Positions 1-3,000 of a stretch of DNA of 7,118 nt are shown in pieces. Each line of letters starts with the position of its first letter. Within the stretch, counting starts at the first letter, position 1. A program made the position numbers. This stretch comes from a virus (Duplodnaviria; Heunggongvirae; Uroviricota; Caudoviricetes). The stretch lies in IMG/VR virus record IMGVR_UViG_2548876695_000012; one strand, given 5' to 3'.

Positions 1-3000
1 ACGTGTATTTTTAGTCATCCTGTTTACCTCTTTCTCAGGGAGTTTAGTCTCCAGGATTCCCGGGGCGGTTCAGATAATCTTAGCATTGACCGCCTTTATA
101 TAGAAGCTGTTATTCAAGAAGCATTTTCAAGCAGTGATGTAAGAAAATATTACACTATTAGAAAATCTGGCATGAAATCATCATTGAACCTAACAGAGAT
201 CGAGTATAAAGAAATATTGAAGTCACACCGCAATATAAATGGAATCGATAATTCTGGTTTTACAACTGAAACAAATGAAGCTGTTTTGGCTGCACTATCT
301 GCGGAGGTAAGGGGATGCTAACTCCATACAAAAGAGCTGATGTAGAATTCGAATGGATTAGTGATCTAGAAGAACAGGGTTGTTTTTCAAAAGTATATCT
401 GGCTCATGACAGACACCTAGCTCATGACTTGGTGATTAAAGAAATAGAAAAAAAAGAAAACACTAACCACGACGACTACTTTAATGAAGCAAGGCTTCTC
501 TATAAACATGCACATCCAAATATTGTGCAAGTTCAGTATGCTGCTCAATGTGAGAGCAATATCTATATAGCCATGCCATTTTATCATAATGGTTCGCTAA
601 ACCAATTAATGAAAAAAAATAATCTTACAAGCAGGGAGATAATACGGTATTCCATTCAATTTTTAAGTGGACTTTATCATATACACTCAAAAGGTCTTAT
701 GCATTTTGATATAAAACCTAATAACATTATGATATCAAACAGAAATGAGGCCATGCTATCTGACTTTGGATTATCTCAGTTAGTCAATGAGGAATCGAGA
801 GCTGCGCCTGAGTTTGGATATCATTTTCATGTGCCACCGGAATATTTTTCTTTATCAACAAATGATTATAATTTCACATATGACATATATCAGGCAGGAT
901 TAACCATATATAGAATGTGTGTTGGACATGATAATTTTGAAAGAGAAAGATCTGCATTTAGCACGATTGAACAACTCAGAGAGTCGATAATTAATGGCTG
1001 CTATCCATTAAAAGAGTATCCTCCCCATATACATAAAAAATTAATAACAATAGTGAACAAATGCATTCATGTAGATCCAAATGAAAGATATCAATCCGTA
1101 CTAGATGTACTAAACGATCTCTCAGCTATAAGTGATGGCGTTCTTGACTGGCGTCTACAGATGACGAAACCAACTAACGGCACATGCGAATGGCAAAAAA
1201 AGTCTGGGGACGCTATACTGTCTATAGTTTTTGACGCAGAAAATTCGTCTACTACTGGTTTTCGTTTATACGATGATGGGCGGAAAAGGCGTGCTACGAA
1301 CTTAACAATATCCTCAGGATGTACCCCTACAAAACTGTATAGGTTATTAAAGGATAACTGATCATGAAAAAGCGCGAGGAAGTAAGCAAGCTGCCTCGCA
1401 GACGTGATGCAGCATTAGCGGTTCCCTACAAAAAAGATGAGTTCATAAGTCCTTCTGATGACAAAAAATTTTCAAAGGCGAAAAGTTTTACATCTACATC
1501 TCTAAAAGATAAATACTTTAAAATCTAGCCCGGCCTCAGCGCCGGGTTTTCTTTGCCTCACGTTCGCCCACCTAAAAAACATAACCAATTGTATTTATTG
1601 ATGTAACTCGCTAAACCATGCAGTTATGATCCCTGCCGCATAACCTTCATCAGCCACATTTTCAAAAATAAATTTCCTTATATATCAGAATCATACTTCG
1701 TAGAGTTAATAAATCACCAAAATTCGTACCAATAGTTCTTGATAATGTCGAACTATTGGTTCATTATTATCGTCGTCAGCAGGACGCATTACTCACCAGG
1801 GCGGTGAATATACAACGATTCGAATATGAATCTACGGCGCTGACAAAGCGCAATAACCAAAGTGAACTTTGGGGTGTGGTGAAGGGTTCATGGACGGGAA
1901 TATGTCGCACGTAAAGCGGCGAGGCCTGCGGGACTATTGCCGAATTGAAGTAGGCCGAAACAGGTCGAAATGGGTCTCCCACCTACCACACCACCAAAGT
2001 TCATCAGGAGGTCTATATGACACGCAGAACTCAGTTCAAAGGCAATTCACGTTCTCGTCGTCGTGAGCGTTTAAAGGCAAAGGCATTAGCTAACGGCGTG
2101 CTGGCCCGCGAAGAAGCAATAAGTTCAGAAGTATTACACCGCCCTACTCTAAGTAGAGCGCAGATTCAGGCTAAAGGTACTCACGAAACGCCTGAGCGCA
2201 TAGAAGACGCTAAGCCAATTAAGTTCATGGCACAGGACGTGATCTGGCAACAGAAAGAATACAGACGCAATCTGGAGCGAGCGGCCATTGTGTACGCGAA
2301 TGAGTTTGGACATAAGCAACCAGAAACTGGTGTATGTCTTCCAAACGTAGCTCTTTACGCGGCAGGCTACCGGAAATCAAAACAACTGACAGCAAGATGA
2401 CTTGTGTTGGTCGCCAGAAAATGAAATTAGGCAGCAAACCACTTATTTGAGGTGAGATATGACAAAATCATGGAGCGTACCTTTTCCTGAATCAGAAACT
2501 GAACATGATGGAATGCCTGTTTTCTGGAGATTCCAGGCGACAGTTGAAGAAGATGGGATAAAAATATTCGCACTTCAATATATAGCTTTTCATCAGACAG
2601 AGCATTATGCATGGTTGGTTCCTGCGCATTGGATTGTTAATTTTAAACCAGCACCAAATCAGTGGTTACAGGAATGGAAACAAAAGAGAAATAGATATGC
2701 AATTAAGAAAGTAGCAAAAAATGCAGAAAGATCTTTTGCATTCCCAACGAAGAAACTTGCCATTGAAAGTTTATTGCGCCGGAAGAAATACCATTTAATG
2801 AGAATCAAACAAGATTTGGCTGTTGTATCAACTCTTGTTGATGGGATGAAGAATATTGATACATCAATACCAGATATTGAATATAACTTTGGACACAACC
2901 AAGAAACAGAAAATTGGGTATTTTATTAGTACGAATAAGCACTGTGTATTCATTCCAGCGAGTGAATACACGGAGCAATGTCGCTCGTAACTAAACAGGA

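Follow-up and report, generated by a model that had tools for sequence, protein, structure and literature searches.

A widely conserved, uncharacterised phage protein with a predicted novel fold, encoded by an apparently promoter-less mobile cassette between N and cIII of Shiga-toxin phages

In phage lambda, the interval between the antiterminator gene N and cIII houses Ral, an anti-restriction protein that is small, soluble and made early from the operon read from pL; the N-independent pL transcript of lambda stops at the terminator tL1. In E. coli prophages the slot may instead hold genes of the lambda SieB and P22 gp17 types, which act in superinfection exclusion and escape from it. Another point of reference is the classical lambdoid moron, a gene that carries its own promoter and terminator and is expressed from the prophage (after Juhala et al. 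2000, as cited in PMC3342100). Here we analyse an open reading frame (ORF) of 156 amino acids (aa), at positions 2459-2929 on the + strand of a 7,118-nucleotide (nt) stretch of virus DNA (IMG/VR record IMGVR_UViG_2548876695_000012; the whole stretch is hereafter called the window), where it is the single gene between N and cIII. An earlier note on this DNA, made by reading the sequence, had described the ORF as an AT-rich orphan and a candidate for superinfection exclusion or anti-defence.

The ORF product shares with Ral its predicted solubility, slot and operon, but is more than twice as long (156 against 66 aa). As the earlier note expected, it bears no likeness to Ral, SieB or Ea10: BLASTP against the lambda proteins gave E 24 for Ral, E 0.21 over 14 residues for SieB and no local alignment at E<=100 for Ea10. 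Lambda sieB is annotated in the orientation opposite to the pL operon, whereas the ORF is co-oriented with it and lacks both a detectable promoter and a hydrophobic segment. Compared with morons, the ORF is similar in its AT-rich composition relative to its flanks (35.5% against ~50% GC), in its gene-tight junctions and in a 3' hairpin that travels along with it in 46 loci; it differs in the lack of a detectable promoter of its own, and its position behind pL predicts expression in the lytic cycle. The AT-richness pointed out in the earlier note is marked, with a GC content at third codon positions (GC3) of 27% in the ORF, and overall GC contents of 48% in N and 50-52% in gam, bet and exo.

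We favour the reading that the ORF encodes a stand-alone, non-enzymatic binder of nucleic acid or another polyanionic target that would act early in lytic growth, and give this a probability of about 0.4. We prefer it because the protein is small and predicted to be soluble, has no catalytic signature and carries a basic stripe that is conserved across a divergent family, and also because there is no partner gene, expression is predicted to be immediate-early, and relatives occur in phages that are probably virulent. Under this reading, pL would fire at infection or induction, so that the product is made alongside N, before antitermination. The soluble 18.6-kDa protein would then act alone, its basic stripe (residues 24, 75-76, 83-84, 87, 91/92, 98 and 108-109), set beside an acidic tail, contacting a polyanionic target, of which nucleic acid is the likeliest; the protein would serve host takeover or counter-defence during the opening minutes of the lytic cycle.

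The ORF is well formed and has the strong ribosome-binding site that the earlier note attributed to it: the ATG at 2459 is preceded by a Shine-Dalgarno sequence, GAGGTGA (2449-2455), which is an exact 7-mer match to the complement of the anti-Shine-Dalgarno and ends 3 nt before the start codon. Comparison with relatives from Pectobacterium, Brenneria and Cronobacter indicates a real coding sequence under purifying selection, beyond a chance reading frame, because synonymous differences are saturated (pS 0.78-1.0) while the nonsynonymous measure pN stays at 0.18-0.27. We also considered an antisense feature over the ORF, since antisense ORFs of 45-79 aa overlap it and a minus-strand promoter-like site lies at 2948-2920. 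This candidate was rejected: the minus-strand site straddles a cassette junction at 2937, purifying selection acts on the + frame, and the promoter scan as a whole found 2 promoter-like sites against 4.9 expected by chance.

The product has a calculated pI of 9.05, and its charge is unevenly distributed. The N-terminal third is acidic (pI 5.0), as is the tail (pI 4.05), and between them lies the basic central segment that the earlier note had remarked on, with 17 K/R against 4 D/E in residues 61-125 (pI 10.9). The highest 19-residue hydropathy is 0.71, in keeping with the earlier expectation that there is no transmembrane helix.

The label of orphan proved wrong. The ORF product matches PHROG 1636 over its full length (E 1.2e-111, residues 1-156 against profile positions 1-156 of 156), and its close relatives number in the hundreds, with more distant ones making up a superfamily in phages. 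HK97 gp45 (NP_037731.1) is 98.1% identical to it, and the counterparts in 933W (L0079, AAD25424.1), Stx2-86 (orf57), phi24B (vb_24B_11c), H-19B and BP-4795 are 98-100% identical. In HK97, 933W, Stx2-86 and phi24B this is the same gene, labelled hypothetical in every record and each time directly downstream of N; it is followed directly by a terminator hairpin and cIII in HK97 and Stx2-86, whereas an ea10/ssb gene intervenes in 933W and phi24B. In the protein collection searched, 1000 or more contigs carry the exact sequence, always under the name 'hypothetical protein', and of 5426 complete E. coli genomes at least 561 contain the segment 2401-3121 at >=80% coverage. Full-length relatives with 57-85% identity are present in Salmonella, Cronobacter, Pectobacterium, Brenneria, Rosenbergiella and Symbiopectobacterium.

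Beyond these enterobacteria, an exhaustive profile search recovered 87 cluster representatives at E<1e-3, mostly of 130-170 aa and aligned over residues 19-140; the first 18 residues, in which V7, P8 and P10 are conserved, are an extension specific to the enterobacterial clade. The wider superfamily takes in PHROGs 13631, 25384 and 28215 together with metagenomic relatives. Among 67 aligned diverse members, all match PHROG 1636 and 57 match PHROG 13631. Cultured phages with a member include the Pseudomonas phages 8P, Medea1, Cruim01, Touem01 and Skulduggery, several Vibrio phages, and the Pantoea phages LIET2 and Nafs113; every one of these proteins is annotated as hypothetical in GenBank. The superfamily spans temperate and probably virulent phages whose hosts are Pseudomonas, Vibrio, Pantoea and marine bacteria, the lifestyle of the non-lambdoid phages being judged from genome size and gene content. 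LIET2 gp064, considered as a second divergent copy in that phage, was rejected (hhalign probability 0.05). The gene is therefore already catalogued and widely conserved in phages, and it is uncharacterised: literature searches with L0079, phrog_1636, vb_24B_11c and HK97 gp45 returned nothing relevant to it.

Structure prediction followed by structural alignment, which the earlier note had proposed, was carried out. An AlphaFold model built from 21 close homologues alone was unusable (predicted local distance difference test, pLDDT, 57), but with 20 distant relatives added, in a set of 40 sequences, the model reached a pLDDT of 92.3 and a predicted template modelling score (pTM) of 0.78. In this model, strands 19-30 and 33-46 form a long hairpin, which strand 50-55 extends to a three-stranded sheet; helices 56-59 and 66-74, a strand at 83-86 and a 33-residue helix (98-130) follow, and the tail (131-156) is non-regular yet confidently placed. 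The model matches no structure in the PDB, so the predicted fold is unlike any solved structure. The same PDB comparison found no likeness in fold to solved anti-defence proteins (Ocr, ArdA, Acr, Tad, Gad, Acb and similar). The topology is loosely similar to that of AP2 and integrase N-terminal DNA-binding domains and of small Tudor/chromo-like barrels, with which the model shares a beta sheet followed by a helix capped by T-x-x-x-A, and a basic surface.

Conservation across the superfamily is concentrated in a few positions. A101 is invariant in the 67 diverse members, and G33 (at the hairpin turn), T47 and K87 are nearly so; in the 40-sequence set R91, A94, K109 and F155 are invariant as well. 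The ORF has all the elements of the shared core, namely the hairpin with its invariant glycine, the (E/Q)-T motif, K87, R/S-x-A-F, the helix start at A101, the basic stripe and a C-terminal aromatic residue. One catalytic motif was considered, H-x-T (H45-Q-T47), and rejected: T47 alone is conserved in the wider family, and since H45 is not, a catalytic histidine is unlikely. No catalytic-type invariant residues were found across the 67 sampled members.

What the family does conserve is its charge. The region aligned to residues 74-117 carries a net charge of +5 to +14 (median +10) in 67/67 members, K or R stands in >=66% of members at positions 24, 75, 76, 83, 84, 87, 92, 98, 108 and 109, and the C-terminal part is acidic (-2 or below) in 60/67. 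Family searches add little to this picture. The ORF product has no Pfam match at E<=1 and none in NCBIfam, and its sole match in PADLOC-DB is to Cas1_II (13 bits, E ~0.01). When the 67 members were compared with Pfam and PADLOC at permissive thresholds, no family matched consistently; Cas1_II was weakly matched by 6 members and any other PADLOC-DB model by one.

A conserved basic stripe would also suit an accessory factor in phage recombination, replication or excision, such as an architectural DNA-binding protein, and the gene neighbourhoods bear on this. In Marinobacterium, Pseudomaricurvus and metagenomic prophages the gene always has the orientation of the early-left operon and lies between the repressor or recombination genes and xis-int; in Pectobacterium and Brenneria it is placed at the distal end of this operon, with xis-int immediately downstream, and in Cronobacter between N and cIII. 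That the gene is always part of the early-left operon and in the company of recombination genes (YqaJ, Erf/RecT, SSB, RdgC) speaks for a role in DNA transactions. However, the gene has no fixed neighbour and in E. coli adjoins N, a long way from int; it can be dispensed with, in that many lambdoid phages carry other cassettes instead; and it is present in loci with no integrase in view, as in the 74.7-kb myovirus LIET2, where it belongs to a block of small genes. We consider such a factor an improbable explanation.

To the search for a partner we applied BLAST clustering and Pfam, covering 143 neighbour proteins from 16 diverse loci. No recurrent partner gene emerged; the content was that of a generic early region (integrase 4, C5 methylase 3, YqaJ 2, and one each of Nmad5, SSB, NADAR and dUTPase), which suggests that the protein most likely works alone. 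A link with DNA methyltransferases looked attractive because a C5 or other methylase lies within 3 kb in several distant loci, but it was rejected, with C5 methylases in 3/16 loci, N6/N4 methylases in 1/16 and a variable arrangement. Methylases and Nmad5 near the gene are probably general early-region content with no functional link.

The timing of expression was considered from the layout of the locus. We assign the window to a lambdoid Shiga-toxin phage of the 933W type; it holds the early-left (pL) region, presented in the direction of pL transcription. Positions 2300-3100 are identical in DNA (100%) to the Stx2a phages Stx2_EH0505 and Stx2_16002 and 98-99% identical to 933W, phi24B, BP-4795, Min27 and Stx2-86. 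Gene order was established from the 933W and Stx2-86 annotations together with our own sequence scans, as follows.

315-1361, + strand: stk kinase gene (933W/Stx2-86 annotation)
1364-1528, + strand: 54-aa ORF, equal to 933W L0081 (PHROG 4063)
~1527-1548: tM terminator (933W/Stx2-86 annotation and our own scans)
1739-1767, + strand: pL-like sigma-70 promoter, TTGATA, 17-nt spacer, CATTAT (promoter scan, by consensus match alone)
1785-1851, + strand: nutL, transferred from the 933W annotation (L001, our 933W locus, 2986-3052, offset 1201)
1837-1851, + strand: boxB-like hairpin in nutL, GCGCT-GACAA-AGCGC (read from the sequence)
2017-2400, + strand: antiterminator gene N, 127 aa (Pfam N_peptide, E 9.8e-16; PHROG 271)
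2401-2458, + strand: leader of the ORF, with the Shine-Dalgarno sequence (sequence and folding)
2459-2929, + strand: the ORF under study (ATG start; PHROG 1636)
2930-3033, + strand: 3' untranslated stretch that mostly moves together with the ORF (mosaic junctions)
3034-3057, + strand: first terminator-like hairpin (3034-3051) and U tract, tL1-like (terminator scan and folding)
3072-3096, + strand: second terminator-like hairpin (3072-3091) and U tract (terminator scan and folding)
3108-3166, + strand: cIII thermoregulator (Rfam RF01804, 88.5 bits, E 3e-21)
3121-3261, + strand: cIII, 46 aa, the right edge of the slot (reading frame)
Next: kil, then gam 3473-3769, bet 3775-4560 and exo 4557-5237

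The pL-like promoter lies between tM and nutL, as in the 933W annotation, and the ORF is co-oriented with it and downstream, which agrees with the earlier note on the direction of transcription. The note had further placed the ORF under N antitermination, and this is probably wrong. The convincing intrinsic terminators come after the ORF: hairpin 3034-3051 has a folding energy (dG) of -10.7 kcal/mol (z -3.1), with a 'putative terminator' annotated at the same position in the HK97 record, and hairpin 3072-3091 has a dG of -9.9 kcal/mol (z -4.05). Between the pL-like promoter and the ORF the sole terminator-like element is a weak 5-bp stem within N (dG -5.6 kcal/mol, z -1.1), and the 58-nt spacer from N to the ORF is unstructured, folding no better than shuffled sequence (z +0.49). 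Because no convincing intrinsic terminator precedes it, the ORF is probably carried on the immediate-early pL transcript together with N, independently of antitermination.

These features also bear on the possibility, raised in the earlier note, that the gene acts in the lysogen from a promoter of its own, as a moron for superinfection exclusion or defence. The composition of the ORF is close to that of stk (GC 35.4%, GC3 28%), a neighbouring exclusion kinase gene expressed in the lysogen, and exclusion genes of the SieB and gp17 types use the same slot. The own promoter did not materialise, as no + strand promoter-like site was found between N and the ATG in a consensus scan, which weak or non-sigma-70 sites could escape, and the shortest form of the cassette leaves 16 nt before the ATG. 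The ORF stands downstream of a pL-like promoter repressed by CI, and is thus probably silent in the repressed prophage. Nor does its product fit the type, having no transmembrane segment, no consistent PADLOC match among the 67 members and relatives in large, probably virulent phages. A role in exclusion from the lysogen is accordingly very unlikely in our estimate, and is disfavoured relative to anti-defence.

The mobility of the gene is evident from comparison of 108 loci with the window. The N-cIII interval is a mosaic accessory slot, as the earlier note had supposed, in which other E. coli prophages carry varied genes: Ral, Ea10/DUF2528, a P22-gp17-type 'superinfection exclusion' gene, Nmad5, DUF7167, a 322-aa TolA-like gene and orf184. 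Left junctions with the window fall at 2398, at the N stop codon (31 loci), and at 2443, just 5' of the Shine-Dalgarno sequence (17 loci); right junctions fall at 2937, eight bases past the stop codon (6 loci), and at 3057/3061, immediately past the U tract of the first hairpin (46 loci). A gene 98-99% identical follows different N types, with 62 to ~1400 nt between N and the gene and 101 to ~1680 nt between the gene and cIII. These junctions describe a mobile cassette made up of a Shine-Dalgarno sequence and the ORF, usually with the 3' untranslated region and one terminator hairpin. The cassette appears to be promoter-less, since its shortest form starts at 2443 and the scan revealed no + strand promoter-like site.

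The mosaic structure also speaks to whether the product might be a cofactor or modulator of N-dependent antitermination. In its favour, the gene follows N after 58 nt in 933W, HK97 and the window and would share a transcript with it; N itself is 99-100% identical between the window and 933W, HK97 and Stx2-86. However, the stop codon of N is precisely where the most frequent left junction falls, and the gene also follows N genes of unrelated types or other cassettes, and occurs in phages without N. We regard a partnership with N as extremely unlikely.

Several rearrangements of the slot were seen in passing. Relative to 933W (L001, 4131-4721), the window at 2930-3121 lacks the 369-nt ea10/ssb (DUF2528) gene through a clean indel of ~400 bp; this gene, between the ORF and cIII, is present in 933W, phi24B, BP-4795 and Min27 and absent from Stx2-86 and HK97. 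E. coli 57_142493 (L013:2003-2329) carries a 5'-truncated pseudogene copy of the ORF whose junction corresponds to window position 2601, so that recombination occurs within the cassette too. The pseudogene is followed in the same slot by a P22-gp17-type gene (PF17420, E 7e-56), a family for which the ORF itself gave no match. In E. coli 2023CK-01687 (L012:2562-3185), a putative nucleotide-modification gene of the Nmad5 family stands directly upstream of the ORF homologue.

Position and timing are the evidence for a dedicated counter-defence protein that, like Ral, would bind and block, or decoy, a specific host immune protein instead of nucleic acid, and on these grounds such a role is plausible. 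The gene is found in the hypervariable slot that also accommodates ral and other accessory cassettes, its place is immediate-early by prediction, its distribution is patchy, and it is AT-rich and without a partner gene. Published screens by Silas et al. (bioRxiv 10.1101/2023.04.06.535777; PMC12373910) included Ral and orf184, both from one accessory region, and the first of these papers reports orf184 as the trigger of the gop-beta-cII abortive system. In one of our loci (L051) the ORF homologue (L051:3390-3860) is immediately preceded by a gene (L051:3003-3326, +) for a 106-aa acidic protein beginning MEALVVERSEDGYWT. The first 15 residues of this protein agree with the deposited AlphaFold file of orf184, and it belongs to no Pfam family. 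This adjacency identifies the published 'ral accessory region' with the N-cIII slot. Two equivalences were rejected, that of orf184 with Ea10 and that of orf184 with the ORF, the deposited file beginning MEALVVERSEDGYWT and thus describing a different, 106-aa acidic protein. Peptide strings of the ORF product are absent from the supplementary files examined from both Silas et al. papers, so that, as far as these files go, the screens provide neither positive nor negative evidence on it.

Other observations sit less well with a protein that targets host immunity. No PDB chain is structurally similar to the model, those of anti-defence proteins included; the protein is basic and hence no DNA mimic; and the E. 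coli copies are nearly invariant. Taken together, we see a dedicated protein-targeting counter-defence role as possible but unlikely, and prefer the stand-alone binder of nucleic acid or another polyanion.

Several points also weigh against that preferred reading. Binding to nucleic acid is suggested by the conserved charge pattern, and a basic surface could equally dock on an acidic protein. The E. coli copies are 98-100% identical, unlike the fast divergence common in arms-race genes. Immediate-early status is itself an inference, as Rho-dependent termination, RNase processing and weak internal promoters are invisible to the scans used. Finally, no function is recorded for any family member in Pfam, NCBIfam, PADLOC, PHROGs, GenBank or the literature searched.

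A bolder version can be formulated, in which the ORF represents a new, widespread family of immediate-early proteins of novel fold whose basic stripe would bind nucleic acid of host or phage, or a host complex bound to nucleic acid, and so disarm a host response or take over a host process. We hold this to be a doubtful proposition in its entirety. If true, Shiga-toxin (Stx) phages and HK97 would have a second immediate-early effector beside N. The gene lies in the first transcript predicted for 933W-type Shiga-toxin phages and HK97, is present in one in ten or more complete E. coli genomes, and has relatives in phages of several bacterial orders. An immediate-early effector in this position would bear on the lytic onset of Stx prophages, and hence on toxin release, and would add a new fold to the phage proteins of host manipulation.

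Some further features of the window deserve mention. The stk product (315-1361) matches PADLOC defence kinases (mad6, E 7e-50, and many PD-T4-6 models). According to PMC3681748, HK97 infection activates the Stk kinase of 933W, which excludes HK97; given that the two phages have the ORF in near-identical form, its product is unlikely to be the HK97 trigger of Stk. The 54-aa ORF at 1364-1528 (933W L0081), squeezed between stk and tM, is basic and matches stk in AT-richness; in the lysogen it presumably shares a transcript with cI and stk. At the right edge of the slot, the match of the cIII thermoregulator to RF01804 is full-length, and cIII has 46 aa here against 54 aa in the coding sequence annotated in lambda. 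Downstream of exo there is a 73-aa ORF of the TraR/C4 zinc-finger type (5971-6192, +), whose stop codon is overlapped by the GTG start, at 6189, of a 256-aa ORF (6189-6959, +); the counterpart of the latter in Stx2-86 is annotated as 'enterohemolysin 2 like'.

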